Shown piece after piece: positions 5,303-27,799 of a stretch of DNA of 64,000 bases; the first letter of the stretch is position 1, and every line of letters begins with the position of its first letter. A program made the position numbers and the translations under genes. This DNA is from Pseudomonadota bacterium (lineage in GTDB: Bacteria; Pseudomonadota; Alphaproteobacteria; Rhizobiales; Aestuariivirgaceae): NCBI GenBank assembly GCA_020161855.1, contig JAIUNJ010000009.1, forward strand, positions 47,644 through 111,643, written 5' to 3'. The notes under the pieces are model-generated. The model was not told the origin of the DNA. It saw only the letters and a list, made by a program, of their open reading frames with translations, and did no database searches.

Positions 5303-5767
5303 ATGGCATCTCCCGAACGCCGTCTGAAGGAGCTGGGCATCCAGTTGCCGAAGCCCGCCAAGCCCGTTGCCAACTATGTTGGCTGGGTCCGAACCGGCAA
5401 CCTTATCTATGTGTCCGGACAGGTGCCTGTCGTAGACGGCAAGATTCTTGTGACCGGCCACCTCGGCGCTGGCGTCTCCATCGAAGATGGCGCCAAGGCT
5501 GCGCGCCAATGCGCAATCAACATCATGGCGCAACTCAATGATGCCACCGATGGTGACCTCACCCGCATTGCCCGGATCGTGAAGGTCACCGGCTTCGTGG
5601 CCTGCACAGCCGAATTCACCGATCATCCCAAGGTCATCAACGGTGCCTCCGATCTTTTCGGTGAGGTCTTCGGCGACCGCGGCAAACATGCGCGGGCAGC
5701 CGTTGGTGCGCCTTCCCTGCCGCTCAACGCCGCCGTTGAAGTGGAAGCGATTGCCGAGGTCGAATGA
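5303..5767 (+). CDS. RidA/YjgF family protein
   Basis: PVANYV, VSGQVP, HPKVINGASDL, HARAAVG, LPLNAAVEVE. Confidence 0.85.
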   Translation: MASPERRLKELGIQLPKPAKPVANYVGWVRTGNLIYVSGQVPVVDGKILVTGHLGAGVSIEDGAKAARQCAINIMAQLNDATDGDLTRIARIVKVTGFVACTAEFTDHPKVINGASDLFGEVFGDRGKHARAAVGAPSLPLNAAVEVEAIAEVE

Positions 5768-6525
5768 TGCGTTTTTCGCCGCAGATGCGGGATCTGTCCT
5801 GGCTTGTGGCGCGGCCGATTGCGCATCGCGGCCGGCACGACTGGAAGAATGGCCTGGTCGAAAACAGCCAGAGTGCCTTTGCCGCCGCCATCAGCGGCAA
5901 CTATGCCATCGAATGTGACCTGCAGATCACCCGTGAAGGCGAGGCAGTGGTTTTCCATGACGAGACGCTCGACCGGGTGATGCAAGCCAAGGGCTGGGTC
6001 AATCAGCACAGCGTCGCAGAACTCAAGGCGCTGAGCTACCGCCATGGCAAGGATCGCATCCAGACTCTGGCCGAAATGCTGACACAGGTCGCCGGCAAGG
6101 TGCCGCTGGTGATCGAGCTCAAGTCTCATTGGAACGGTGATGAAGCGCTCGCCTTGCGGGCCCTGAAGGTGCTTGAGCCCTATGATGGGCCCTATGCGCT
6201 GATGTCCTTCGATCCGGACGTCATCGCAACCGTTGCGACCTATTCACCGCAGACCGTGCGCGGCATTGTCGCCGACCGCGTCGTCGACAGCTACTACGCA
6301 GGTCTCTCTTTTGACCGCCGCATGGAGATGCGCCACTTCTCGCATCTGTCACGCACACGGCCGCATTTCGTTTCGTTCAACTATATGGAACTGCCCTTCC
6401 AGCCGGTACAGAACATCCGGGCTGCCGGTCATCCCGTGATCTCCTGGACCATCCATTCGCAAGCCGCTGCCAATCAGGCCCGGCGCTATTCGGACCAGAT
6501 CACCTTCGAGGATTTTGCGGCCTGA
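5764..6525 (+). CDS. Glycerophosphodiester phosphodiesterase family protein
   Basis: IAHRG, ENS, IECDLQ, VFHDETLDR, IELK. Confidence 0.9.
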   Translation: MMRFSPQMRDLSWLVARPIAHRGRHDWKNGLVENSQSAFAAAISGNYAIECDLQITREGEAVVFHDETLDRVMQAKGWVNQHSVAELKALSYRHGKDRIQTLAEMLTQVAGKVPLVIELKSHWNGDEALALRALKVLEPYDGPYALMSFDPDVIATVATYSPQTVRGIVADRVVDSYYAGLSFDRRMEMRHFSHLSRTRPHFVSFNYMELPFQPVQNIRAAGHPVISWTIHSQAAANQARRYSDQITFEDFAA

Positions 6526-8086: not shown

Positions 8087-9280
8087 CGCGATAGCCTGCC
8101 TGATGTCGTCGAGGATATCCTTCACGTCCTCGAGGCCGACGGAGAGTCGCACCATGCCTTCGGTGATCCCCATCATCTGACGGGCTTCTTCACCAATGTT
8201 GCGGTGGGTGGTCGAGGCCGGATGCGTCATCAGCGATTTCGCATCGCCAAGATTGTTGGAGATGTCGACAAGGCGCAACTGCCGCAGAAGATCGAAGGCC
8301 TGAGCCTTGCCGCCTTCAAGCTCGAACGTCACCATCGTGCCACCCTTGCTCATCTGCCGCTTGGCCAGATCATATTGCTTGTGGCTCGGCAGGTGCGGAT
8401 AGATCACGCGCTTCACGCCACGCGTGGCAGCCAGTGTCTCGGCAATGGCGAAAGCCGCCTCGGACTGCGCTTCAACGCGCAATTTGAGGGTCTCCATGCC
8501 TTTAAGCAGAACCCAGGCATTGAAGGGCGAAAGCGATGGGCCGGTATGGCGCAGGAACGGCTTCAGCAACTCGTCCTTGAACTGCTTGGTCGACACAATA
8601 GCACCGCCGAGAACGCGCCCCTGCCCGTCCATGTGCTTCGTTCCGGAATAGACGATGACATCGGCGCCCATGGTGAGCGGCTTCTGCAGAATGGGCGTGG
8701 CAAAGATGTTGTCCACGACGAAGCAACAGCCGGCTCGCTTGGCGATCTCGCCGACGGCGGCGATATCGATGATTTCCAGCGTCGGGTTGGAGGGCGTTTC
8801 GAGGAAGACAACCTTGGTCTGCGGGGTGATAGCTGCAGCCCAGGCCTTCAGGTCGCCACCATCGACCAGCGTGTGCGTGATACCGAAGCGCGGCAGGATC
8901 GCCGTGATGATCTGGTAGCAGGAGCCGAACAGTGCGCGCGACGACACGATATGGTCGCCGGCCTTCAGCTGGCAGGCAAGAGCGCCCCAGACAGCAGCCA
9001 TGCCAGAGGCAACGCCATAGCAGGCCTCCGCCCCGTCGAGCAGCGCCAGGCGCTCCTCGAACATGGTGACGGTCGGATTTCCGTAGCGGCCATAGACGTA
9101 GCCGTCGTCCTTATTGGCGAAACGGTTCTCCGCCGTTTCCGGCGCGTCATAGACGAAGCCCGAGTTGAGATAGAGCGCTTCCGCTGTCTCGCCATAAGGC
9201 GTGCGGTCAAGCCCGCCACGCACGAGCTTGGTGGCATCGCCCCATTTCGGCGAATTCCGGGTGCGGGATTTCTTGGTCAT
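8081..9280 (-). CDS. metZ: O-succinylhomoserine sulfhydrylase
   Basis: Cys/Met PLP enzyme: YVYGRYGNPTV, ETPSNP, YSGTKHMDGQGR, RLSVGLED. Start placed at ATG 9280, just after the rhodanese stop (ORF track starts at 9328). Confidence 0.85.
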   Translation of the reverse strand: MTKKSRTRNSPKWGDATKLVRGGLDRTPYGETAEALYLNSGFVYDAPETAENRFANKDDGYVYGRYGNPTVTMFEERLALLDGAEACYGVASGMAAVWGALACQLKAGDHIVSSRALFGSCYQIITAILPRFGITHTLVDGGDLKAWAAAITPQTKVVFLETPSNPTLEIIDIAAVGEIAKRAGCCFVVDNIFATPILQKPLTMGADVIVYSGTKHMDGQGRVLGGAIVSTKQFKDELLKPFLRHTGPSLSPFNAWVLLKGMETLKLRVEAQSEAAFAIAETLAATRGVKRVIYPHLPSHKQYDLAKRQMSKGGTMVTFELEGGKAQAFDLLRQLRLVDISNNLGDAKSLMTHPASTTHRNIGEEARQMMGITEGMVRLSVGLEDVKDILDDIRQAIAS

Positions 9281-9287
9281 CAGTGTC

Positions 9288-9689
9288 TCAGCTTTGAACC
9301 CAGGGGAGGCCGTGGAACTTCCAGCCATTCATGTGGGCACGATGTCCCTGTGGGTCCTTGTCGCCTTCAAAGCCCTCGGCGATGTTCCAGCAGTTGCTGT
9401 AGCCCGCCCGTGCCAGCGCCGTCGCTGCAGAGGCAGACCGCGCGCCGGACCGGCAGATACAATAGATTTCCGTATCCTTGGGCAGCGACATCGCCTCCAC
9501 TTCCTCAACGAAGCGGGCGTTCACTTCCATCTGCGGGTAAACCTGCCACGACAGGCGCAGCAGCCGGTCCACCTGTGGCACGCCCACAAAGGTCCATTCC
9601 GGCTGGGTGCGGACATCGATGAGCACCGCGTTCGGGTTCTTCTTGAGTTGCTCATGGGCCTCCGGCGGCCGCACATCGCCCTTGTACAT
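9288..9689 (-). CDS. Single-domain rhodanese (sulfurtransferase)
   Basis: LIDVRT.PEW, active-site CRSGARS, GFEGD...GWK..GLPW.Q. Confidence 0.85.
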   Translation of the reverse strand: MYKGDVRPPEAHEQLKKNPNAVLIDVRTQPEWTFVGVPQVDRLLRLSWQVYPQMEVNARFVEEVEAMSLPKDTEIYCICRSGARSASAATALARAGYSNCWNIAEGFEGDKDPQGHRAHMNGWKFHGLPWVQS

Positions 9690-9860
9690 TGCATCACCCT
9701 TAACTTGTGTAAGTGGGGCCTCTTAGCCGAGTTGGCCCGCCCCCGCAAATGCACTGCCGAAGCCAAGGTTGAGTTTTTGGCAGGGCCAGTGCAGCGATCT
9801 GGCTCTTGGCCCGCCCCCGCCATTTGCTAGTTTCTGCCCGACAGAACGAGGATTCCCCAT

Positions 9861-12320
9861 ATGCCCGCCTCCAAGCTTCCCGCCCGCGCCGATGTCGTCA
9901 TTGTCGGTGGTGGCATCGTCGGCAGTTCCATTGCCTACCACCTCACCAAATTCGGCATCCGCAATGTTGTGCTGCTGGAGCGGAAGCAGCTGACCTCGGG
10001 CACGACATGGCATGCTGCGGGCCTCGTCGGCCAGTTGCGCGCCACCCGCAACCTCACCGAACTGGCCAAATACACAACCAGCCTCTTTGAGGGCCTTGAG
10101 AAGGAAACAGGCCAGGCCACCGGCTTCAAGCAGAACGGCTCGATTTCGCTCGCCCTGTCGGACGGCCGTTATGAGGAATTGCTGCGCGGCGCCTCCATGG
10201 CCAAGAACTTCGGCCTTGAAGTCAATGTCATTCCACTGAGCGAGATCAGGGAGCGCATTCCCCACTACAATCTCGATGGCGTGAAGGGCGGCGTCTTCCT
10301 GCCGAAGGATGGCCAGGTCAATCCGATCGACGTCACCCAGGCGCTCGCGGCGGGTGCCCGCTCGGGTGGCGCCAAGGTTTTCGAGAACACCAAGGTTACC
10401 CGCATCATCGTCGAGAATGGCAAGGCCAAGGGCGTCGAGACAACGGCTGGAACAATCAAAGCCGACAAGATCGTCGTCGCCGGAGGCATGTGGAGCCGCG
10501 AACTTGGCCGCTCCGCCGGTGTCAGCATCCCGCTCCATGCCTGCGAGCATTTCTACATCGTGTCCGAGCCCATCGAGAAGCTGCCGCGCAACATGCCGGT
10601 CGTCCGCGTGCCGGATGAATGCACCTACTACAAGGAGGACGCCGGCAAGCTCATGGTCGGCGCCTTCGAGCCCAAGGCCAAGCCTTGGGGCGGTGGCGGC
10701 ATTGATGACGAGCATGCCTTCGTCACTCTGCCCGAGGATATGGATCACTTCGAACCCATCCTCGCCAACGCGATCAATCGCGTGCCTCTGCTTGAAACCG
10801 CAGGCATCCAGCTCTTTTTCAACGGGCCGGAAAGCTTCACACCCGATGTGCGCTATTTCCTTGGAGAGGCGCCGGAGGTGCAGGATCTCTTCGTCGCCTC
10901 GGGATTCAACTCCATCGGCATCCAGTCGTCCGGGGGTGCTGGCCTCGTCTTGTCGCAATGGATCAAGAACGGCCATCCGCCGATGGATGTGAGCGGCATC
11001 GATATCCGCCGCATCCATCCGTTCCAGTCAAACCGCAAATACCTGCATGATCGCGTGTCCGAAAGCCTCGGGCTGCTCTATGCCATGCACTGGCCTTACC
11101 GCCAGGCCGAGACCGCGCGCGGCGTGCGCCGGTCACCCATCCATCAGTACACAGACAAGCTCGGTGCGGTCTATGGCGAAGTAAATGGTTGGGAGCGTCC
11201 GAACTGGTACGCCCGGGATGGCGTGGCCCGCGCCTATGACTACTCCTACGGACGTCAGAACTGGTTCCCTTGCGCGCAGTATGAGGCTGATCGGCTCAAG
11301 AACGACGTGGTCTTTTTCGACCAGGCCTCCTTTGCCAAGTACAAGGTGGCGGGCAAGGATGCGCTCAAGGTCCTGAACCAGGTTTCTGCCAACGACGTCG
11401 ACGTGCCCGCCGGCAAGGTTGTCTACACGCAGTGGCTCAATGACCGCGGCGGCATCGAAGCCGACCTGACTGTTACACGGCTGGGCGAACAGGAATTCCT
11501 CGTTGTCACGGGCGCAGCACCCCAGGTTCGGGACATGGCATGGCTCAAGCGTCACAGCGGCGACAAGAATGTCGTGGCCGTCGATGTCACTTCGGGCCTG
11601 CCCATGATCGCCCTCATGGGACCGAAGTCGCGCGCCCTCCTGCAGAAGATCTCGCCCAATGACTTCTCCAACGAGGCTTTCCCCTTCGGTACCTCACAGG
11701 AGATCGAGGTCGGCTATGCCAAGCTGCGCGCCACCCGCCTCACCTATGTCGGCGAATTGGGCTGGGAGCTTTACATCCCGGCGGAATTTGCGGCGCATGT
11801 CATGGAGACCATTCTGGCCGCCGGGCCGGAATTCAACCTGGCCCCCGCCGGTCTTCATGGCATGAACAATGCCCGTATGGAAAAGGGCTATCGCCATTGG
11901 GGCCATGACATTGCGGACGAAGACACGCCGCTGGAAGCGGGTCTCGGCTTCGGTGTCGCCTGGGACAAGAAAGGCGGCTTCATCGGAAAGAAGGCGCTCG
12001 CCAAGCAGCGCGAAAAGAAGCTTCTCCCGAAGCGCATGGTGACGATCGCCCTTGAGGCTTCAGGCGAAGATGCGCCCATGATGTATCATGAGGAGCCCGT
12101 CTACCGCGATGGCGTGATCGTTGGTTCCACCACCTCGGGCGCTTGGGGCCATCGCGTCGGCAAGTCGCTAGCCCTCGCCTACGTCAAGAATGATGGCGGC
12201 GTGAATGCGGATTGGCTGGCTTCAGGCAACTGGGAGGTTGAGATTGCCTGGAAGAAGTATCGCGCCAAGATGCAATTCGCGGCCTTCTACGATCCGAAGG
12301 GTGAGCGTATCAAAGCGTGA
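9861..12320 (+). CDS. GcvT-family FAD-dependent oxidoreductase (dimethylglycine/sarcosine dehydrogenase-like)
   Basis: VIVGGGIVG, SGTTWHAAG, NGPESFTPD, GWERPNWY, RMEKGYRHWG; substrate not determinable. Confidence 0.85.
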   Translation: MPASKLPARADVVIVGGGIVGSSIAYHLTKFGIRNVVLLERKQLTSGTTWHAAGLVGQLRATRNLTELAKYTTSLFEGLEKETGQATGFKQNGSISLALSDGRYEELLRGASMAKNFGLEVNVIPLSEIRERIPHYNLDGVKGGVFLPKDGQVNPIDVTQALAAGARSGGAKVFENTKVTRIIVENGKAKGVETTAGTIKADKIVVAGGMWSRELGRSAGVSIPLHACEHFYIVSEPIEKLPRNMPVVRVPDECTYYKEDAGKLMVGAFEPKAKPWGGGGIDDEHAFVTLPEDMDHFEPILANAINRVPLLETAGIQLFFNGPESFTPDVRYFLGEAPEVQDLFVASGFNSIGIQSSGGAGLVLSQWIKNGHPPMDVSGIDIRRIHPFQSNRKYLHDRVSESLGLLYAMHWPYRQAETARGVRRSPIHQYTDKLGAVYGEVNGWERPNWYARDGVARAYDYSYGRQNWFPCAQYEADRLKNDVVFFDQASFAKYKVAGKDALKVLNQVSANDVDVPAGKVVYTQWLNDRGGIEADLTVTRLGEQEFLVVTGAAPQVRDMAWLKRHSGDKNVVAVDVTSGLPMIALMGPKSRALLQKISPNDFSNEAFPFGTSQEIEVGYAKLRATRLTYVGELGWELYIPAEFAAHVMETILAAGPEFNLAPAGLHGMNNARMEKGYRHWGHDIADEDTPLEAGLGFGVAWDKKGGFIGKKALAKQREKKLLPKRMVTIALEASGEDAPMMYHEEPVYRDGVIVGSTTSGAWGHRVGKSLALAYVKNDGGVNADWLASGNWEVEIAWKKYRAKMQFAAFYDPKGERIKA

Positions 12321-16828: not shown

Positions 16829-19009
16829 CTAAGGGCGCTCGCCTGCCCGGCGCGATCTCGGCTGCCATGTCCAGGGCCTGTATCCTTGTGTGCCGCGCAC
16901 CGTTTCCACCGACACATCTTGCGCGATGAACACGGCATAGGCGCCATGCCGCCAGACATCGAAACGGTCCACCGTCAGCAGCGCCCCACGGCAGCTGCGC
17001 CGCAGAGGGTATTGCGCAATCAGGATGTCTGAGCGCGGGCATGGCTTTGCCAGCTCCGCCGATGACTGCAGGAAGGTCACACGCTTTCCTCTGACCTCGG
17101 CGCTGCATACCGAACCGGTGCAGTTCCAGAGCGCGCGTTTTGCGGCCACGCCGACCCGCTCCGGCTGACCTGCCTCCCGCAGCCAGCGCGTTACTGGCAG
17201 ATACCGCGCCTTGACATCAAGCGGCACCAGATGTCTTCCGGCGTCGCGCGCCGCCACGGTGCGGGCGCGCTCGTCGATCAGGAGGTCGGGTGTTGCCCGG
17301 GTGGCGCCAAACACTGCCGCCAGAACAAGCGCGGGGATACAAAGCCAGCGCAAGGCAGATTGGGCCATGCAGGCAAAAGCCGCCGCAAGGGCAAGCGCAG
17401 CCGCAACTGGCGCCGGAAGCAGCGGCAGCGTGAGACTGGCATGCGGCCAGCTTGCCACCCAGTCCGATATCCACATCACCACCTCAAGGCCCCGACCCAT
17501 GGCCCAAAGGAAGGGATAGTCGAGGCCCAGCGGCATGAGCAGCGTCGCCGCCAGCGCCGAAGGCATCACCACGAGCGAAACCACGGGCAGCGCCAGGGCG
17601 TTTGCGGCGATGCCGTAAGGTGCGATGCGCCCGAAGTGATGGGCCGCGGCGATACCGGACAGTCCTCCGGCAATGAGCGAGGTCAGAAGCGAGGCAATGA
17701 CGAGCAAGACCAACCAGCGGCCGCCGCGGGCGACCCAGCCACGTCCCGGCCGGTATTCGCGCGCCGCCCGTCCGTTCCACCACTCGAAGAAGGCCGCCAG
17801 ACCCATCACCGCGAGGAAGGACATCTGAAAGCTCGCAGCAACGGCCTGTTCCGGCGCAAGAACCAGAATGAAGATCGCGGCAATGGCCAGATTGTGCAGC
17901 GACAGGGCCGGCCGGTTCACCATGACCGCGAAAAGCACGATCGCAACCATGATGAAGGAGCGCTCGGTGGCAGCACCTGAGTCGGCCAGCAACATGTAGA
18001 ACAGTGCCACCAGCAACGCGGCGCCCGCCGCCCAGGCCTTGATCGGCCGCGTCAGCGCAAGCGTAGGCGACAGCGCCAGAAGCGCCCGGATAAACCAGAA
18101 GGCACCACCCGCCACCAGCGCCATGTGCAGCCCGGAAATCGAGAGGATATGAAACAGGCCAGACGCCTGCAGGCTGTCGTTCATGCTGCGCGGAATCTGC
18201 GCCCGCTCGCCGGTGATCAGGGCATCCGCAAATGATCCCAGTGGCCCCTCGATCACACTCCGGATGCGCATGCCGATCAGGCCACGCAGCGCATGGAAAC
18301 TGCGCCGCAGCTGATAGCGAAGCGGTGCTGGATCGTCATTGATGACAATCCCACCCTTGAAACTTCCTGTCCCGCCGATCGACTGGAAGAAGAGGCTGCG
18401 CCCAAAATCAAAGCTTCCCGGCGAAACAGGCATCGGATTGGGAAAGAGCCGCGCTGTTCCAGAAATGCGGTCGCCGATCTTCGGCAAGTCCGCGCCGCCA
18501 AAGAGATCAAGACGCAGCCGGCGTGGCCTTTCCCCGTCGGGAAGGCCGGAGGCACTTATCACATCCACCACCAGTTCGGCCCGCCTCGCACTGCGGCGAT
18601 CGACATCAGCCACCCGGCCCTCGATCTGCGTTTGAGGCACATAGGCCCGCAACAATGGGGTCGCCACCCAATGTGTCCGCACCTGCGCCAGCACGAAACC
18701 GGCCGCAATGATGCAGATGAGCCTGATCATCAGGCTCCCCGGCTTGCGCCAGAGCAAGACAGCGGCCACCACAATGAGAATGACCGGCAGCGCCAGAGGC
18801 GGCTCGCGCGTCAGCGCAAAGTAGCTCCAGATGCCACACACCAGCAGGAGCGGCGCCCAGACCGTGAGGCGGTGGCCTTCCTGCTCGCCGATCTCCGTCA
18901 GCAGGCCTCCGGCACGGCGCAGAAGCGGCACACCATCCCCTTTGACGGCCTCCGCCCCTGTGCTATCCGCGCCCCACACGGCCATTTGCGCCTTCCCCTG
19001 ACCCATCAC
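16829..19009 (-). CDS. comEC: ComEC/Rec2 competence membrane protein
   Basis: [40 protein letters not shown]; start uncertain. Confidence 0.9.
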
Positions 19010-19030: not shown

Positions 19031-20455
19031 ATGTCATCGCCCGTCGTCACGCGCTTTGCGCCCTCGCCCACCGGCTTCCTGCACATCGGCGGAGCCCGCA
19101 CCGCCCTGTTCAACTGGGCCTACGCGAAGCACACCGGCGGCAAGATGCTGCTCCGCATCGAGGACACGGACCGCGAGCGCTCGACTGATGCCGCAGTCAC
19201 TGCCATTCTCGATGGCCTCAGGTGGCTGGGTCTCAACTGGGATGGCGAGGCCGTTTCGCAGTTTGCCCGTGCCGGGCGGCATCGTGACGTTGCCCAGGAG
19301 CTCATCAAGCGCGGCAAGGCCTACTTCTGCTACTGCACGCCCGAAGAGCTTGAGGCCATGCGCGCCAAGGCCGAGGCCGAGAAGCGGCAGATCCGCTATG
19401 ACGGCACATGGCGTGACCGCGATCCGGCGACCGCACCTGCGGGCGTCAACCCGGTCATCCGTTTCAGGGCGCCGCAGGAAGGCGAGACCGTCATCAACGA
19501 TCACGCCCAGGGGCGCGTCGTTATCCCCAACAAGGATCTGGACGATCTCATCATCCTGCGCTCGGATGGAAACCCGACATACAATCTGTCCGTCGTCGTT
19601 GACGATCACGACATGGGCGTCACCCACATCATCCGCGGCGTCGATCACCTGACCAACGCGGCCCGCCAGACACAGATCTATCTCGCCATGGGCTGGGATG
19701 TGCCATCCATGACCCATGTGCCGTTGATCCATGGTCCCGATGGCGCGAAGCTTTCCAAGCGCCACGGTGCTCTTGGCGTGGAGGCCTATCGCGAGATGGG
19801 CTATCTCCCGGCCGCCCTGCGCAACTACCTTGCCCGCCTCGGCTGGAGCCATGGCGACGACGAGATCTTCTCGACCGGGCAACTCGTCGAATGGTTTGAA
19901 CTGGACGGTATCGGCAAGTCTGCCTCGCGCTTCGACTTTGCCAAGCTCGAAAACCTGAACGGTCATTACATCAGGCACACGCCGGATGCGGAATTGCTCG
20001 CCCACTGGCTCGCCGTCCTGCCTTACATCGAAGGCGGCTCCGACCGGCTTTCGCAGATCGATGAGCAGATGAAGGGCAAGCTCCTGAAGGCCCTTCCCGG
20101 CCTCAAGGAACGCGCCAAGACGCTCAAGGAGCTGAATGCCAGCGCGGCATACCTCTTCGCACAGAGGCCCCTTCCGTTGGACGAGAAGGCCCGGCAGATC
20201 CTGGCCGACGGTGGCACGCAGGCTCTTGCGGGGGTGCTCCCCGTCCTCAAGGCCGCAACAAACTGGTCGGCGCATGATCTGGAGGCCGCCGTGAAGGTCC
20301 ATGCCGAAGCGGCGGGTCTCAAGCTCGGCAAGCTCGCCCAGCCACTGCGCGCGGCCCTCACAGGCACAAGCACCTCACCAGGTATTTTCGATGTGCTCGA
20401 GGTTCTGGGCCGCGAGGAAAGCCTTGCGCGCATCGCAGATCAGGCATCAGCCTGA
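19031..20455 (+). CDS. gltX: Glutamate--tRNA ligase
   Basis: [15 protein letters not shown] (HIGH), KLSKRHG (KMSKS); start placed at ATG 19031. Confidence 0.97.
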
Positions 20456-20582: not shown

Positions 20583-21881
20583 ATGACCGCGAGCACGAAA
20601 ACCGCAAAGCTTGAGCTGAATGGAAAGACCGTAGATCTGCCCGTAAAGGCGGGCACAATCGGCCCCGATGTGATTGATATCGGCGCGCTCTACAAGGAGA
20701 CCAAGTCCTTCACCTTCGATCCGGGCTTCACGTCGACGGCGGCCTGCGAGTCACAGATCACCTACATCGACGGCGACGAAGGCATTCTGCTGCACCGCGG
20801 CTATCCCATCGAACAGCTGGCCGAGCATGGCGACTTCCTCGAAACCTGCTACCTGCTGCTCTACGGTGAGCTGCCGAATGCCGCCCAGCGCCGCAAGTTC
20901 GATCACAACATCACCTACCACACGATGGTGCATGAGCAGATGGCCCTGCTCTTCCGCGGCTTCCGCCGCGATGCCCACCCCATGGCGGTGATGGTTGCCG
21001 TGGTTGGCGCCATGTCGGCCTTCTATCATGACTCGACCGACATCAACGACCCGCGCCAGCGCGAAGTGGCTTCGCATCGCATGATCGCAAAGCTGCCGAC
21101 GATTGCCGCCATGGCCTACAAGTATCACATCGGCCAGCCCTTCGTTTACCCGCAGAACAACCTGTCCTACGCCGCAAACTTCCTGCGCATGTGTTTCGCC
21201 GTGCCGTGCGAGGACTATGTGGTGAACCCGATCCTGGCGCGCGCCATGGACCGCATCTTTATCCTTCACGCCGACCACGAACAGAATGCCTCGACCTCGA
21301 CCGTGCGCCTGGCAGGTTCATCTGGCGCCAATCCCTTTGCCTGCATTTCGGCTGGTATCGCCTGTCTCTGGGGTCCGGCGCACGGCGGTGCCAACGAAGC
21401 GGCTTTGAAAATGCTCACCGAGATCGGCCGGCCCGAGAACATTCCGTCCTTCATCGAGAAGGTAAAGGACAAGAACTCCAATGTCCGCCTCATGGGCTTC
21501 GGCCACCGCGTCTACAAAAATTACGATCCGCGCGCCAAGATCATGCAGCAGACGGCACATGAGGTCTTGCACGAGCTCGGCGTCGACAACGATCCGCTGC
21601 TCCAGGTGGCGCATGACCTTGAAAAGGTCGCCCTCTCGGACGACTATTTCATCTCGCGCAAGCTCTATCCGAATGTCGATTTCTATTCAGGTATCATCCT
21701 GCGCGCCATGGGCTTCCCGACGTCGATGTTCACCGTGCTGTTCGCATTGGCGCGCACCGTCGGCTGGATCAGCCAGTGGAAGGAAATGATCGAGGAGCCG
21801 AACCAGCGCATTGGCCGTCCACGCCAGCTCTACACCGGCCCGGCGCGCCGCGACTATGTGGCCATGACCAAGCGCACCTGA
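20583..21881 (+). CDS. gltA: Citrate synthase (type II)
   Basis: [54 protein letters not shown]. Confidence 0.97.
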
Positions 21882-21889
21882 TGGGATTG

Positions 21890-21913
21890 GGGCGCCGTCT
21901 CAGGCGCCCTTTT
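21890..21913 (+). terminator. gltA terminator overlapping the last codons of the convergent fabZ
   Basis: GGGCGCC-GTCTCA-GGCGCCC-TTTT. Confidence 0.6.
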
Positions 21914-22373
21914 CGTCCATCAGCATCGCGCCGATCTCGGCTTCCGCGACCTTCTTTCCATCGACATGGGCCTCGGCCCAGTATTTCCAGACGGGCGGTC
22001 GCTTCTGCGACAGCTTCACGTGGAAATGCACCGTATCGCCAGGCACCACCGGACGGCGGAAGCGCGCCTTGTCGATCGACATGAAGAAGACCAGCTTGCC
22101 AGCGTGAGCATCACCCAAATGCTCGAGAACGATGGCTCCTGCCGCCTGGGCCATGGCCTCGACCAGCAGAACCCCCGGCATCACCGGACGGCCAGGGAAG
22201 TGCCCCTGGAAGAAGGGCTCGTTCATGGTCACGTTCTTGATCGCGGTGCCACTCTCCTCGCCGTTCAGGTCAACCAGCTTGTCGATCAGCAGGAAGGGAT
22301 AGCGGTGCGGCAGCAGCTTCAGAATCCGGGTGATATCAACCGACTTCCCGGTCTTTGGGGTTGTTTCGTTCAT
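21900..22373 (-). CDS. fabZ: 3-hydroxyacyl-ACP dehydratase
   Basis: LPHRYPFLLID, FFQGHFP, MPGVLLVEAMAQ. Confidence 0.96.
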   Translation of the reverse strand: MNETTPKTGKSVDITRILKLLPHRYPFLLIDKLVDLNGEESGTAIKNVTMNEPFFQGHFPGRPVMPGVLLVEAMAQAAGAIVLEHLGDAHAGKLVFFMSIDKARFRRPVVPGDTVHFHVKLSQKRPPVWKYWAEAHVDGKKVAEAEIGAMLMDEKGA

Positions 22374-22435
22374 GGCTGTCTCCGGAAAAGCAAAGGGCGG
22401 GTTTCCCCGCCCTCTTAGCCCATTCTTGATGCTGA

Positions 22436-24811
22436 TTAGAAGCGGGTCCCGAGCGAGAAGGCAAAGCGCTCGGCCACGTCGGTATCTTTCTTGAGCAGCG
22501 GATAAGCCACATCGAAGCGCAGCGGCCCGAAGGGTGAATTCCAGACGAGGCCGGCACCGATCGACAGGCGGAATGCCGCCTTGTCATAGACGTCGCAATC
22601 ATACTGCTTTGTCGGATGGCTAGCCTGGTTGGCAACCGAACAGTTGCCAGAGCCATATGCGACGGAATCCGTGTCAGCACCAAACACCGTACCGAAATCG
22701 GTAAACACCGCACCACCCAGGCCAAGTGTTTCGGGAACGAACGGCAGCGGGAAGAACGCCTCGACAGTACCGATCGCATAGCTCTGCGCACCAATGGCGT
22801 CGAGCTTGCCATCATTGCCGCGCTGGAACGGACCGACGCCCAGCGGAGCAAAGCCGCGGAACGAGTTACCACCCTTGAAGAAGCGGTCCTCGATGGCAAT
22901 GTCCTTGCCGAGCGGCTGCATGTATCCGGCGTTGCCTTCGAACTTCAGGATGACCTGATCCTCAAAGAGCGGCACGAAGAACCAGCCACTGCCTTCGATG
23001 GAGGCATAGCGCGCGTCACCGCCAAGGCCCGCAACCTCCGCATCAATCACACCCTTGAAGCCGGTCGTCGGCACCTGCGGATGATCGAGGGCGTCATATG
23101 AAATCTTCATGCCAAAGGAGGATTTGATCGTCTCGCCCGACTGCTCGATGATCGCCGGCGAAGCATATTTCGGATTAACAGCGTCCACGTCGCGGTAGGC
23201 GAGCGTGTATTTCATGATGACCGAGGTATCCTCGTTCAGCTTGAAGCCGGCGCGCAAGGCGCCACCGATCTGCCGGCTCTTGTAGGAATTGGACGATACG
23301 GTGTCAGCCTTGTTGGCGAAAATGTCGAAGCCTGCTGCAATCGGCATGTCCAGGAAATAGGGGTCAGTGAAGCTGGCATCGATCGCCTGCTTCTTGAAGC
23401 TCGCGGAAACCGCCAGCTTGGCCTGATAGCCGCGGCCGAAGAGATTGCGTTCCGCCAGCGTCACGGAACCGATCACCGTCTCGACCGAGGAATAGCCGGC
23501 ACTGAACGACAGGCTGCCCGTCGATTTTTCGACGACCTTCACAACCAGCACGACCTTATCAGGCGCCGAGCCCGGCTCGTCGGCAAAGTCGATCGACTGG
23601 AAGAAGTCGAGTGCCACAAGGCGGCGGCGGGCGCGTTCGACCAGCGCCTTATTGTAGGCATCGCCTTCGTAGAGCAGCAACTCACGACGGATGACGTAGT
23701 CAAGCGTGCGGTCATTGCCCTCGATGTCGATGCGCTCGATATAGGTCCGCGGCCCTTCGGTGATGTTGTACTGGATGTTGAGCACACCGCTGCCCGCCGT
23801 CTTGTCCAACTGCGGGTCGACCTTGGCAAAGACATAGCCCTGCTTCGCTGCTTCCAGCGTCAGCTGTTCGACCGTCTTGTCGACCTTCTCCGCATTGTAG
23901 CGGCGGCCTGTCGGCGTCTTGACGGCGCGTTGCAGCGGAACCGGGTCGAGGTTCGCATCGCCAATGTTGACGGCAACATCGCCTACTTCGTAGCGCTGGC
24001 CTTCGTGAATCCGGAAGGTCACGACAAAGCCGTTGCCATCTTCGGTGGATTGCACGTCAGCACCGAGGATTTCCACGTCGGCATAGCCGTATTTGAGATA
24101 GAAGCGGCGCAGAAGCTCCTTGTCGGCCTCGATGCGTGCCTCGTCGTAATTCGTGTTGCGGGCGAAGAAGCGGTACCAGGAATACTGCTTGGTCGTGATC
24201 GCATCCCGCAGGCGCCAGTCGCTGAACGACTCGTTGCCTTCAAAGCTCACCTGCCGCACGCGCGTCTTCACGCCCTCGTTGATCTCGAACACGAGGTTGA
24301 TGCGGTTCTCCGGCAGGCGGATCAGCTTCGGCACCACAGTGACGTTGTAGTAGCCCTGCCGCTGGTACAGTTCGATGATGCGGCGGTTGTCCGAGGCGAC
24401 GCGCGCCTTGGTGAAGATCATTCGCTCGCGGACCTGCACTTCCTTGGCCAGCGTCTGATCGTCGATGACGTCGTTGCCTTCGAAGTTCACCACATTGATG
24501 AGCGGGTTCTCGACAACGGTGATGACCAGTGTCGAACCGCGCAGGTTCATGCGCACGTCGCGGAACAGGCCGGTCTGGAAAAGATCCTTGATAGCATCGT
24601 CGATCGTCTGGTCGTCGACGTTGTCGCCCGGGCTGATGGGCATATACGAGAAGATGGTTTCGTTCTCGACGCGCACATTGCCTTCAATGGCAATGTTGTT
24701 GACCGTCTGGGCAAAGGCCGGACGCGAAAAAACAGCAGGCTGCAGAACGGGCGCAACCGCAAAGGCAAACAACGCAAGAACGCAGATGACTGAGAAACGA
24801 ATACGCATCAA
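22436..24811 (-). CDS. bamA: Outer membrane protein assembly factor BamA
   Basis: POTRA repeats, FRGFAPLGVGP loop-6 motif, WNSPFGPLRFD, C-terminal Phe. Confidence 0.96.
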   Translation of the reverse strand: MMRIRFSVICVLALFAFAVAPVLQPAVFSRPAFAQTVNNIAIEGNVRVENETIFSYMPISPGDNVDDQTIDDAIKDLFQTGLFRDVRMNLRGSTLVITVVENPLINVVNFEGNDVIDDQTLAKEVQVRERMIFTKARVASDNRRIIELYQRQGYYNVTVVPKLIRLPENRINLVFEINEGVKTRVRQVSFEGNESFSDWRLRDAITTKQYSWYRFFARNTNYDEARIEADKELLRRFYLKYGYADVEILGADVQSTEDGNGFVVTFRIHEGQRYEVGDVAVNIGDANLDPVPLQRAVKTPTGRRYNAEKVDKTVEQLTLEAAKQGYVFAKVDPQLDKTAGSGVLNIQYNITEGPRTYIERIDIEGNDRTLDYVIRRELLLYEGDAYNKALVERARRRLVALDFFQSIDFADEPGSAPDKVVLVVKVVEKSTGSLSFSAGYSSVETVIGSVTLAERNLFGRGYQAKLAVSASFKKQAIDASFTDPYFLDMPIAAGFDIFANKADTVSSNSYKSRQIGGALRAGFKLNEDTSVIMKYTLAYRDVDAVNPKYASPAIIEQSGETIKSSFGMKISYDALDHPQVPTTGFKGVIDAEVAGLGGDARYASIEGSGWFFVPLFEDQVILKFEGNAGYMQPLGKDIAIEDRFFKGGNSFRGFAPLGVGPFQRGNDGKLDAIGAQSYAIGTVEAFFPLPFVPETLGLGGAVFTDFGTVFGADTDSVAYGSGNCSVANQASHPTKQYDCDVYDKAAFRLSIGAGLVWNSPFGPLRFDVAYPLLKKDTDVAERFAFSLGTRF

Positions 24812-24999: not shown

Positions 25000-26136
25000 T
25001 CAGCTTCCCATCACCGTATTGATGACCCTGATGACGTCGTTCCAGACACCCACCAGCATCAGCATCACAACGAATGAAAAACCAATCCGGAAACCCCATT
25101 CCTGTGCCACCGGGCCGAGCGGTTTTCCGCGCACGGCTTCGAGTGCATAGAAGACGAGATGCCCACCATCGAGCATAGGAACAGGAAATAGGTTAATAAG
25201 TCCGATACTGACACTGAGCAGTGCCAGGAAACTGATGAAAGCCAGGGGGCCGTTTGAGGCCGTGTCGCCCGCCCCGCGGACGATGGTGATCGGGCCGCTG
25301 ATCTGGCTGGTGCTCTCCGTGCCCCTGAACAGCTTGCCGATGTACTTGCCGGTCGTGGCAACGATGTACCAGGTGCGGTCGATGCCCTTCATGAAGGCCT
25401 GCGGCAGGGTGTAGCTCTGGAACCGCGCGCCATCGGCCTGCGGAATGTGCCTCACGCCGAGCAGGCCGACGCGCATGGTGCCGCCATAGCCGTCAGGCAT
25501 TTCCTGCAGTTTCGGCGTCAGCGGCAGGGTCATCAGGCTGCCGCCGCGTTCCACGGTCACCAGCAGCTCCTCGCCGCCACGCATCCACACGGCTTCCTGA
25601 ACATCGGGGAAGCTCTTGGTTTCGGCCCCGTCGACCTTGCGGATGAAGTCGCCCGGCTTGAGGCCGGCAACCTCGGCGGCCGAACCCGGCAGCACCTCGT
25701 CCACACGGGGCTCCGAATAGGGTGCGCCGATCAGCCAGAAGGCCGCCGTGAAAATGAAAATTGCCAGCAGGAAATTCGCAATTGGCCCCGCCGCCACGAC
25801 AGCGGCCCGCTGCCACACGGGCTTGCCATGGAAATTGCCGCTCTCGAGCTTGGTGCCTTCCGGCACAGCCTGCGGCGCACTTGCGGCATTGGCGTCGCCG
25901 GCAAACTTCACATAGCCACCGAGCGGCAGCCAGCAGAATTTCCAGCGCGTGCCATGGCGATCGGTCCAGCCGAAGATCTCCTTGCCGAAGCCGATCGAGA
26001 AGACATCGACCTTCACGCCGCACCAGCGCGCCACCTTGAAGTGCCCGTATTCGTGAACGAACACGATCACGGTGATGGCCACCAGGAAGGGCAGCGCATA
26101 ACTCAGCGGGTAATGCAGAAGATCAGAAAATTGCAT
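25000..26136 (-). CDS. rseP: RIP metalloprotease RseP/MmpA
   Basis: VFVHEYGH, PDZ domain, NLFPVPMLDGGH. Confidence 0.95.
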   Translation of the reverse strand: MQFSDLLHYPLSYALPFLVAITVIVFVHEYGHFKVARWCGVKVDVFSIGFGKEIFGWTDRHGTRWKFCWLPLGGYVKFAGDANAASAPQAVPEGTKLESGNFHGKPVWQRAAVVAAGPIANFLLAIFIFTAAFWLIGAPYSEPRVDEVLPGSAAEVAGLKPGDFIRKVDGAETKSFPDVQEAVWMRGGEELLVTVERGGSLMTLPLTPKLQEMPDGYGGTMRVGLLGVRHIPQADGARFQSYTLPQAFMKGIDRTWYIVATTGKYIGKLFRGTESTSQISGPITIVRGAGDTASNGPLAFISFLALLSVSIGLINLFPVPMLDGGHLVFYALEAVRGKPLGPVAQEWGFRIGFSFVVMLMLVGVWNDVIRVINTVMGS

Positions 26137-26222: not shown

Positions 26223-27065
26223 TTACCAGAGGAAAAGTCCTGCCGCGGGTTCCAGCGGATTGCGGAAATATCCAACGATTCCAGCAACAACCACAACCGC
26301 GATGAGGCCATCGACACGGTCCATGATGCCGCCGTGCCCGGGGATCAGGTGGCCTGAATCCTTCACGCCGTAGTGGCGCTTGAAGGCGCTCTCCAGCATG
26401 TCGCCCGCCTGCTCCACCACGGCCAGGATACCGGCCAGCACAACCAGCGGCCAGATCGAGGGAACGAGATAGGAAGCGAAGATGCCGCTCGCCAGCGCGC
26501 TGCCAGTTATTGCCCCTGCGAGTCCCGCCCAGGTCTTCTTGGGGGAGATGCGTGGCGCGAGCTTTGGCCCGCCGATCAGCCGGCCGGCGAAATAGGCGAG
26601 AATGTCGGCGGCCCAGACAATGGCCACGAGCCAGATGATGGCGTGAAGCCCCCAATGCTCATTGCCGCGCAACACCACGAGGGCAAGCACAGGAAACGCC
26701 ACATAGGGAACGCCCACGTAATTCCACCACGACTTGGCGCGCGGGCCAAAAGCCACGCCCGCATAGGCAACGGCAGCGATCATGAGGATCGCGCCAAGCG
26801 CCACATGGGCGCCCGCCTCCCGCGGGATGAACGCGGCACAAAGCGCTGCAAGCGCATGCAGGGCAAACTGGCTGGTGCTGCGGCCATGGGCGATGACCGT
26901 CCACTCATGCGCCATCAGGATGCCGAGGAAAGCCGCGAAGATCTCAAACCAGATGCCGCCATACCAGATGTCGATGAGCACGGCAGGCGCGAGAAGCACC
27001 GCCGAAAGTGTTCTCACGCCGACATCGGCCCATTTGGGGTTGGACGGGGATTGCGGATCAGCCAT
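26223..27065 (-). CDS. cdsA: Phosphatidate cytidylyltransferase
   Basis: DILAYFAG, ISPKKTWAG, GDMLESAFKR, KDSGHLIPGHGGIMDRVD. Confidence 0.95.
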   Translation of the reverse strand: MADPQSPSNPKWADVGVRTLSAVLLAPAVLIDIWYGGIWFEIFAAFLGILMAHEWTVIAHGRSTSQFALHALAALCAAFIPREAGAHVALGAILMIAAVAYAGVAFGPRAKSWWNYVGVPYVAFPVLALVVLRGNEHWGLHAIIWLVAIVWAADILAYFAGRLIGGPKLAPRISPKKTWAGLAGAITGSALASGIFASYLVPSIWPLVVLAGILAVVEQAGDMLESAFKRHYGVKDSGHLIPGHGGIMDRVDGLIAVVVVAGIVGYFRNPLEPAAGLFLW

Positions 27066-27799
27066 CAGGCCGTCTGGGCCTTGAGCCCGCCGAAGCGGCG
27101 TTCACGCGCCGCATAGGTTTGGACTGCGCGGGCCAGGATCTCGGCGTTGAAGTCGGGCCAGAACTCGGGAACGAAAACGAACTCGGCATAGGCGCACTGC
27201 CACAAGAGGAAATTGGAGATACGTTCCTCGCCACCCGTCCGGATGAGAAGATCAGGCTCCGGCATGCCCGAAGTGTCGAGCAGCCGGTCCAGGATCGTGG
27301 CCGTCACCTCGGATGACTTGAGATTGCCCTGCTCCACCTGCTCCGCAATCCGGCGCGCAGCCCGTGCGATTTCCTGGCGGCTCCCATAGTTGAAGGCGAC
27401 GACCAGCGTGAAGGCCGTGTTGCCTTGCGTCAGCCGCTCGGCCTCATCGAGCATCGACAGGATCGACGGATCGAGATTCTCGCGATCACCGATCACCCTG
27501 ATGCGCACGCCGGACGCATGAAGCTCCGCCACATCCTGCCGGATGAAGCGCTTGAGCAGGTCGAGCAGAAAGGCAACTTCAGTCCGAGGCCGCGACCAGT
27601 TCTCGGTGCTGAAGGAATAGATCGTCAGGTATTCGATGCCCATGTCGGCCGCCGCCCGCACCGCCCGCCGCAAGGCATCGATGCCGGCCTTGTGCCCGGC
27701 CGACCGGGGAAGCCCGCGCGACGTGGCCCAGCGCCCGTTACCATCCATGATGATGGCGACATGACGCGGCGGCTTGCTGACCGGTAGGGGCTGCGACAC
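27065..27799 (-). CDS. uppS: Undecaprenyl diphosphate synthase
   Basis: HVAIIMDGNGRWA, YSFSTENWSRP, IRTGGEERISNFLLWQ. Confidence 0.96.
   Translation of the reverse strand: MSQPLPVSKPPRHVAIIMDGNGRWATSRGLPRSAGHKAGIDALRRAVRAAADMGIEYLTIYSFSTENWSRPRTEVAFLLDLLKRFIRQDVAELHASGVRIRVIGDRENLDPSILSMLDEAERLTQGNTAFTLVVAFNYGSRQEIARAARRIAEQVEQGNLKSSEVTATILDRLLDTSGMPEPDLLIRTGGEERISNFLLWQCAYAEFVFVPEFWPDFNAEILARAVQTYAARERRFGGLKAQTA

Follow-up and report, generated by a model that had tools for sequence, protein, structure and literature searches.

Absence of the lipid A genes across an uncultured Hyphomicrobiales clade, and a sphingolipid that may stand in for lipid A

Introduction

Evidence for the natural loss of lipid A in diderm proteobacteria has so far come mostly from sphingomonads. 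Namely, Sphingomonas is without LpxC, LpxB and WaaA while it keeps LptA, LptD and LptE, and in S. wittichii the sole LptFG is encoded in the sphingolipid locus (bioRxiv 10.64898/2026.04.12.717747). In Caulobacter, LptF2, LptG2 and LptC2 are encoded in the sphingolipid locus and are needed when an anionic sphingolipid is made; they bind the single LptB, and LptF2 and LptG2 are needed for sphingolipid export (bioRxiv 10.64898/2026.04.12.717747). What is more, Caulobacter can dispense with lipid A thanks to its anionic ceramide phosphoglycerate (PMC9393093), and a further report describes the genes for acyl carrier protein (ACP) and acyl-ACP synthetase as co-occurring with spt, the gene for serine palmitoyltransferase (Spt) (PMC9386255). 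Here, we analyse a stretch of 64,000 nucleotides from an alphaproteobacterial metagenome-assembled genome (assembly GCA_020161855.1, contig JAIUNJ010000009.1, positions 47,644 to 111,643), called the window in what follows, whose bamA-fabZ-gltA locus carries none of the lipid A genes that relatives have there, together with the rest of that genome and the clade of uncultured Hyphomicrobiales to which it belongs.

Results

The genome that contains the window (G000, the index genome below) comprises 3.36 Mb in 19 contigs and is 91.9% complete, with 0% contamination. The Pfam models PF04613 (LpxD_N), PF03331 (LpxC), PF02684 (LpxB) and PF04413 (WaaA N-domain) find no match in it, nor in its genus mates G001 and G002, the latter being the same genome as G043, 99% complete and in 2 contigs, one of them of 2.66 Mb. 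The positive controls G003-G005 match all four models at E-values of 1e-58 to 1e-105, the LpxC model reaching 1e-90 to 1e-105. Likewise, tblastn searches of the index genome gave no real match, be it with Methyloceanibacter LpxD, LpxA, LpxI, LpxC, LpxB, WaaA and LpxK as queries (the LpxK query was confirmed as such, and LpxH was not among the queries) or with E. coli LpxA, LpxB, LpxD, LpxK and WaaA. Some weak LpxD-like matches at C13:297979-299578 proved to be CysE (serine acetyltransferase) and a small hexapeptide protein. An earlier note on this DNA, made from the window, had proposed that the Raetz pathway of lipid A synthesis was lost, without being able to exclude that its genes had been relocated. 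In fact, no lpxA, lpxD, lpxB, lpxC or waaA is present elsewhere in the genome by hidden Markov model (HMM) or tblastn search, which rules out such a relocation and agrees with loss of the pathway, the absence of lipopolysaccharide (LPS) itself being read from the genes.

The absence extends far beyond a single genome. In particular, none of the 61 genomes of the GTDB genus, the index genome included, has LpxC; it is likewise missing from five further families (f4, f7, f17, f30 and f36) and present in the remaining 35 of the 40 other families sampled from the order. A maximum-likelihood tree, built by quick search from concatenated RseP, BamA, FabZ, GltA and GltX, all products of linked genes, unites the ten LpxC-less genomes that were sampled in a single clade, with a Shimodaira-Hasegawa-like approximate likelihood ratio test (SH-aLRT) value of 99 and with one change of state. 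When BamA is left out, the genus and f36, as represented by genomes with enough data, stay together in the resulting four-gene tree at SH-aLRT 87. One old loss of the lipid A genes would account for this grouping of the ten genomes; such a single origin is probable and well supported, but not proven, because the trees come from quick searches on five or four linked genes. The clade is one of uncultured Hyphomicrobiales and comprises a genus with 61 species-level genomes and at least four sister families. Among the latter, G068 (f4, 5.6 Mb in 3 contigs) and G100 (f36, 5.6 Mb in 30 contigs) resemble assemblies of isolate quality. Judged from these distributions, the loss appears independent of that in Sphingomonas, because the lineage belongs to a different order, Hyphomicrobiales, in which those 35 of 40 other families keep LpxC. 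Our literature searches found no earlier report of LPS-free Hyphomicrobiales.

At the locus itself, gene calls were made from a listing of open reading frames (ORFs), from reading of the raw sequence and from NCBIfam profile scans. The features of the window are the following.

16829-19009, minus strand: comEC (TIGR00361/TIGR00360 matches), outer flank of the conserved block, in a position common to relatives
19043-20455, plus strand: gltX, glutamate-tRNA ligase (TIGR00464, 505 bits; start approximate)
20583-21881, plus strand: gltA, citrate synthase (TIGR01798, 786 bits), convergent to fabZ
21882-21899: 18-bp junction between the gltA and fabZ stops, where relatives have lpxA-lpxI-(lpxB)
21889-21913, plus strand: likely gltA terminator, a GC-rich hairpin of 8 bp with a U run behind it, covering the fabZ stop codon and last codons
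21900-22373, minus strand: fabZ (TIGR01750, 192 bits; cut-off 155), sole survivor of the former lpxD-fabZ-lpxA-lpxI-lpxB block
22374-22435: 62-bp junction between the fabZ start and the bamA stop, where relatives have lpxD
22436-24811, minus strand: bamA (TIGR03303, 722 bits)
25000-26136, minus strand: rseP (TIGR00054, 283 bits)
26223-27065, minus strand: cdsA (NCBIfam scan), upstream flank of the conserved block
27065-27799, minus strand: uppS (NCBIfam scan), upstream flank of the conserved block

The order is therefore gltA on the plus strand, 18 bp, and then fabZ, 62 bp, bamA and rseP, all on the minus strand. The two gap lengths given in the earlier note are exact, and neither gap has room for a gene or a recognisable remnant, just as had been claimed. 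The overlap of the gltA terminator with the end of fabZ is likewise supported by folding and by position. Namely, the hairpin at 21889-21913 has a folding free energy of -26.7 kcal/mol (z = -5.3, with 0 of 200 shuffles as stable), and the fabZ stop codon, at 21900-21902, lies inside it; a simple terminator scan did not have this hairpin among its calls. The 62-bp junction contains a GGGCGGG...CCCGCCC hairpin on the minus strand after bamA, as read by eye only. The flanking genes cdsA, uppS, gltX and comEC surround the block in the order that had been expected. For gltX, the longest ORF starts at 18293, yet in the NCBIfam scan the GltX match begins only at residue 251.

For comparison, the bamA neighbourhoods of 23 related genomes were fetched, and marker and Lpx proteins were mapped onto them. 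The gene lpxD lies between bamA and fabZ in 13 of 13 LpxC-positive families of the same order, and all 12 such families whose stretch reaches beyond fabZ have the arrangement rseP-bamA-lpxD-fabZ-lpxA-lpxI-(lpxB)-gltA-gltX, in some cases continuing into comEC, with lpxB present in most of the 12; in one further LpxC-positive family, the fetched stretch stopped at bamA. This ancestral order agrees with the one that the earlier note had given for Brucella- and Sinorhizobium-type genomes. The order rseP-bamA-fabZ-gltA, on the other hand, is common to the index genome, five genus mates (including G001 and G002) and G100 of family f36, and G094 of family f30 shows rseP-bamA-fabZ up to its contig end. 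Set against the lpx-bearing relatives, the lpx-free arrangement is therefore derived, two deletions, one on each side of fabZ, having taken the lipid A genes and nothing else. To this extent the earlier note was right about two losses that spared fabZ; they are, however, part of a wider set of clean excisions that also involves lpxC, lptFG and waaA-lpxK.

Namely, ftsZ and bamD are separated by just 146 bp at the site where G004 (Methyloceanibacter) has lpxC; no gene separates holC-pepA from lptD-surA-pdxA-rsmA, at the place occupied by lptF-lptG in E. coli and G004; and the MsbA-like gene is without the neighbouring waaA-lpxK that it has in Methyloceanibacter. One could still argue that the lpx genes moved, or that they fall into the missing ~8% of an assembly that is 91.9% complete and divided among 19 contigs, so that ordinary LPS is made after all. 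We give this next to no credence: HMM or tblastn searches detect none of seven independent lipid A genes, three syntenic sites are cleanly excised, and several of the 61 genus genomes devoid of LpxC are 97-100% complete, including G002 with its 2.66-Mb contig, so that assembly gaps are not the cause.

Two side observations concern the same locus. In the genus mate G007 (contig C32), approximately 2.9 kb are inserted at the fabZ-gltA junction, fabZ lying at 5478-5951 and gltA at 8872-10164. Furthermore, among the sampled genomes of this one GTDB genus, BamA is only 54-62% identical, while its neighbours GltA and FabZ are 80-87% and 76-91% identical, respectively. Judged from this one genus, BamA, and perhaps other outer-membrane proteins, may be evolving unusually fast in the lipid A-free lineage.

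Among the substitutes for lipid A that the earlier note had suggested searching for, serine palmitoyltransferase is indeed present. One of the three alpha-oxoamine synthases of the index genome, at C13:461656-462843, scores 580.6 bits on NF047599 (cut-off 500), and its best match among solved structures is the Sphingomonas wittichii enzyme (2x8u, E 3e-129). It is above the cut-off of the NCBIfam 'BetaP' model and reaches 473 bits on the 'AlphaP' model, under the cut-off of 670. As for hopanoids, six-frame translations of all contigs of the index genome contain no DxDD plus GGW-repeat signature of squalene-hopene cyclase, which, coming from motifs only, speaks weakly against them as the substitute.

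In the surrounding locus, examined over C13:450000-468000, spt is the last gene of a minus-strand operon acs-cerR-acp-spt. The product of acs is a fatty acyl-AMP ligase (784 bits on NF006624), a 322-aa protein of the epimerase/dehydratase family encoded between acs and acp is the candidate CerR, and the ACP is an 84-aa PP-binding ORF whose stop overlaps the spt start. The adjoining plus-strand genes encode a GNAT-like protein, a weak nucleotidyltransferase match, a metallophosphoesterase, LptF, LptG and a DAGK-type lipid kinase. The first of these proteins is 420 aa long, weakly GNAT-like and a candidate bacterial ceramide synthase (bCerS), with counterparts in the sphingolipid loci of G001 (58% identity) and of the LpxC-positive relative G087 (37%), and the DAGK_cat kinase that follows lptG is ceramide-kinase-like and resembles Caulobacter CpgB.

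As to its distribution, 57 genomes of the genus have an Spt that exceeds the cut-off and two more have copies truncated at contig ends, giving 59 of 61; Spt likewise exceeds the cut-off in the LpxC-less families f4, f17, f30 and f36. By these counts, Spt tracks the loss of LpxC. Three LpxC-positive families match the model as well, over the cut-off in G073 and G079 and, with 467 bits, just under it in G087, where a second, very divergent lptFG pair adjoins spt (C1:194000-212000). Such a dual state, Caulobacter-like in combining LPS with Spt, is a plausible candidate for the state from which the lipid A-free clade arose. Within the genus, the gene after lptG is not constant: it encodes a CDP-alcohol phosphotransferase in G001 and G002 as opposed to the DAGK-type kinase of the index genome, and G016 has only a partial phosphotransferase match at the edge of the locus. 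G001 combines the phosphotransferase head-group module with a retained spt. The difference in the gene after lptG suggests that sphingolipid head groups differ within one genus.

The lptF and lptG genes of this locus are the only ones in the index genome. PF03739 has exactly two matches there, the adjacent lptF-lptG at C13:458387-460665, 1 kb from spt, and no match is left at the pepA-lptD site; the notion that the canonical lptFG had been deleted with nothing left was therefore wrong, this one pair being present. The two proteins score 206.8 and 219.8 bits, under the NCBIfam equivalog cut-offs of 230 and 240, and the G002 pair is under them too, whereas canonical LptF and LptG of LPS-positive relatives reach 251-293 bits and exceed them. 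The pair shares 56-60% identity with its counterparts in G001, G002 and G016, but just 20-28% with the canonical pairs of LPS-making relatives and 23-26% with the G087 pair of the sphingolipid locus. In a joint LptF/LptG tree, each of the two halves unites the proteins of the clade with the sphingolipid-locus paralogues of G087 (SH-aLRT 85 and 90), although on long branches. From these sequence comparisons, we lean, with some reserve, towards a retained sphingolipid-type paralogue as against a canonical pair that was relocated and diverged.

The earlier note had also expected msbA, lptA-G and kdsA-D to be gone, and here the genomes contradict it: LptB, LptC, LptA and LptD, an MsbA-like exporter and KdsA, KdsB and KdsD are retained. 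All six genomes first examined have an intact LptD, which scores 220 bits on PF04453 in the index genome, where the lptC-lptA-lptB-rpoN site is intact as well. LptB reaches 367 bits on TIGR04406 (cut-off 240), LptC 42.2 bits on TIGR04409 (cut-off 38), and LptA 58 bits on PF03968 and 45.5 bits on TIGR03002, the latter under the cut-off of 71.7. LptE is poorly conserved in Alphaproteobacteria. Since BamA, BamD, LptD and SurA are all kept, the cell is still a diderm. The MsbA-like ABC exporter (C13:540638-542380, minus strand) is the counterpart of the Methyloceanibacter msbA that stands beside waaA-lpxK. Downstream of it lies pssA-psd (phosphatidylserine synthase and decarboxylase), whereas its upstream neighbour encodes a LysM/Big_13 protein.

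Discussion

What we plainly observe is that the lipid A genes are missing, which of the genes described above are present and where they lie, and how they are distributed phylogenetically. The explanation that we consider likely, while short of certain, is that the Raetz pathway was lost anciently and clade-wide, and that a phosphorylated sphingolipid carried by the Lpt machine replaces lipid A in the outer leaflet. Such a loss would have left several clean scars, the bamA-fabZ-gltA junction among them. The replacement, probably anionic, would be synthesized by the products of the acs-cerR-acp-spt operon together with the GNAT-like candidate ceramide synthase and the DAGK-type lipid kinase. 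LptB2, together with the only LptF/LptG pair, that of the sphingolipid locus, would next lift this lipid out of the inner membrane, for passage along the retained LptC-LptA-LptD bridge. That the sphingolipid is made, that it resides in the outer leaflet and that Lpt is its carrier is what we infer from gene content and gene neighbourhood.

That said, a number of points weigh against this explanation. All the evidence is gene content of metagenome-assembled genomes, only domain family and position mark out the candidate CerR and bCerS, and the lptFG pair may be either a sphingolipid-type paralogue or a relocated canonical pair, its grouping with the G087 pair being on long branches. In addition, two genomes of the genus, G043 (the same as G002) and G045, have neither Spt nor LpxC and yet keep lptFG, so that not every member needs a sphingolipid in order to be free of lipid A. 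In G002, the lptFG pair (within G002:C1:1822000-1841000) adjoins genes for a CDP-alcohol phosphotransferase and two nucleotidyltransferases. What is more, the MsbA-like exporter scores 409 bits, under the MsbA equivalog cut-off of 602, so its substrate may have changed. Finally, there is the synthesis of 3-deoxy-D-manno-octulosonic acid (Kdo), for which the index genome has three bona fide genes.

C14:56802-57620: kdsA
C8:130366-131115: kdsB
C2:41928-42929: kdsD

KdsA, KdsB and KdsD are conserved across the lipid A-free clade, KdsA being 68-83% identical, and Kdo synthesis is retained although the index genome has no WaaA by HMM and no KpsC or KpsS by tblastn. A group 2 capsule was considered as the consumer of Kdo and rejected, as tblastn with E. 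coli CFT073 queries found no KpsC, KpsS, KpsE or KpsM in the index genome at the sensitivity of BLAST. The neighbourhoods of kdsA, kdsB and kdsD in the index genome, G052 and G045 contain no glycosyltransferase fit to be a Kdo transferase. Conserved Kdo synthesis hints at another Kdo-bearing surface molecule and raises a sharp question, namely what uses CMP-Kdo without lipid A and WaaA.

One alternative is that the cell is free of lipid A, but that the main cargo of MsbA and Lpt is some other molecule, for instance a glycolipid that bears Kdo and is anchored by a ceramide or a glycerolipid, with the sphingolipid serving as just one optional anchor or a minor component. The bona fide, clade-wide Kds enzymes and the kept exporter fit such a cargo, as do the variation in head-group genes between members and the situation in the Spt-less G043 and G045, where lptFG stands beside the phosphotransferase and nucleotidyltransferase genes. 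However, no Kdo transferase of a known family was found (WaaA by HMM, KpsC/KpsS by tblastn), an exopolysaccharide could be the Kdo sink instead, and Spt occurs in 59 of the 61 genus genomes, physically linked to lptFG. We therefore hold this alternative to be rather unlikely. An equally minor chance goes to a hybrid 'sphingo-LPS', in which a ceramide-phosphate anchor, or a glycerolipid one in the Spt-less members, would receive Kdo from an unrecognised transferase, be flipped by the MsbA-like exporter and be delivered by Lpt. A molecule of this kind would explain why Kdo synthesis, MsbA and the Lpt bridge survived long after the loss of lipid A.

The same three survivors, that is Kdo synthesis, the MsbA-like exporter and Lpt, could also be taken to mean that enzymes without kinship to those of the Raetz pathway still make a molecule resembling lipid A. 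No such pathway is known to us. In this case all seven steps would need replacing, and a complete alternative lipid pathway, that for the sphingolipid, is present and linked to lptFG; the possibility strikes us as exceedingly slim. Somewhat less far-fetched, but still quite improbable, is a role of Lpt in a job other than bulk lipid transport, such as surface display of lipoproteins, with an outer leaflet of ordinary phospholipid. Two reports describe an LptD homologue that reportedly aids the flipping of surface lipoproteins in Borrelia, an LPS-free diderm, and a reported sorting of some lipoproteins by LptDE in E. coli (bioRxiv 10.1101/2022.12.21.521298, 10.1101/2022.12.25.521893), and G043 and G045 manage without Spt. 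Against this role, what is kept is a seven-part bridge that links inner and outer membrane (LptE was not searched for), including the lipid extractor LptB2FG, and not LptD alone. Moreover, lptFG is embedded in a lipid synthesis locus in the index genome, in G001 and in G087. Replacement of lipid A by a phosphorylated sphingolipid thus stays our preferred explanation, with two features, the retention of Kdo synthesis and the members without both LpxC and Spt, leaving room for something more novel.

What would follow from it? The lineage, which we take to be of a soil type and to belong to abundant soil bacteria, would be a second independent and species-rich natural replicate of lipid A loss, with its 61 species-level genomes and sister families nested among LPS-making Hyphomicrobiales. 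As such, it displays both what goes (the Raetz enzymes, WaaA, LpxK and the lptFG of the canonical pepA-lptD site) and what stays (LptB, LptC, LptA and LptD, the lptFG of the sphingolipid locus, an MsbA-like exporter and Kdo synthesis), and it lends comparative-genomic support to the very recent proposal that Lpt carries sphingolipids. Since there are living intermediates, namely relatives with LPS and Spt and genus members with neither, the order of events should be reconstructable. In practical terms, assays based on LPS or endotoxin should miss these bacteria, which are also likely to show an unusual sensitivity to polymyxin and to LpxC inhibitors.

The nearest parallel is Sphingomonas, likewise alphaproteobacterial, without LpxC, LpxB and WaaA, and with Spt, LptA, LptD and LptB; as in S. 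wittichii, the only lptFG pair lies within the sphingolipid locus. In contrast to Sphingomonas, the present lineage belongs to Hyphomicrobiales, and its Spt fits the 'BetaP' and not the 'AlphaP' model cut-off. Sphingomonas also has glycosphingolipids, namely glycosyl-ceramides, in its outer membrane, whereas the head-group genes of this lineage, for a lipid kinase or a CDP-alcohol phosphotransferase, point to phosphosphingolipids.

In composition, the locus is much like that of Caulobacter crescentus, with spt, acp, a candidate cerR, an acyl-ACP synthetase gene, a bCerS-like gene, a DAGK/LCB5-type kinase gene (cf. CpgB) and lptF/lptG inside, and the proteins of the latter two presumably use the single LptB, as in Caulobacter. 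The two differ in that C. crescentus makes ceramide phosphoglycerate by CpgABC, whereas no homologue of CpgA or CpgC was identified in the index genome, and in that the Caulobacter locus includes LptC2, whereas no lptC2 was seen in the index locus and LptC is encoded at the canonical lptC-lptA-lptB-rpoN site. Furthermore, LPS is still produced by Caulobacter, which possesses a second lptFG pair of the canonical kind and tolerates the loss of lipid A only with fur inactivated; here, the canonical pair and the entire Raetz pathway are gone naturally. The relatives G073, G079 and G087, having LpxC and Spt together, are Caulobacter-like in this respect.

A double membrane without lipid A is likewise found in Borrelia, Treponema, Thermus/Deinococcus and Thermotoga, and our control genomes of Thermus, Deinococcus and Thermotoga match the LptF_LptG and LptD_N models. 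These LPS-free diderms are, however, remote and use glycolipids or lipoproteins, not sphingolipids, whereas here the proteobacterial Lpt set is kept (again with LptE outside the search). As far as gene content can tell, the clade is therefore best described as a new and independent member of the LPS-free diderms with a predicted sphingolipid envelope, that is, as the Sphingomonas configuration in uncultured Hyphomicrobiales.

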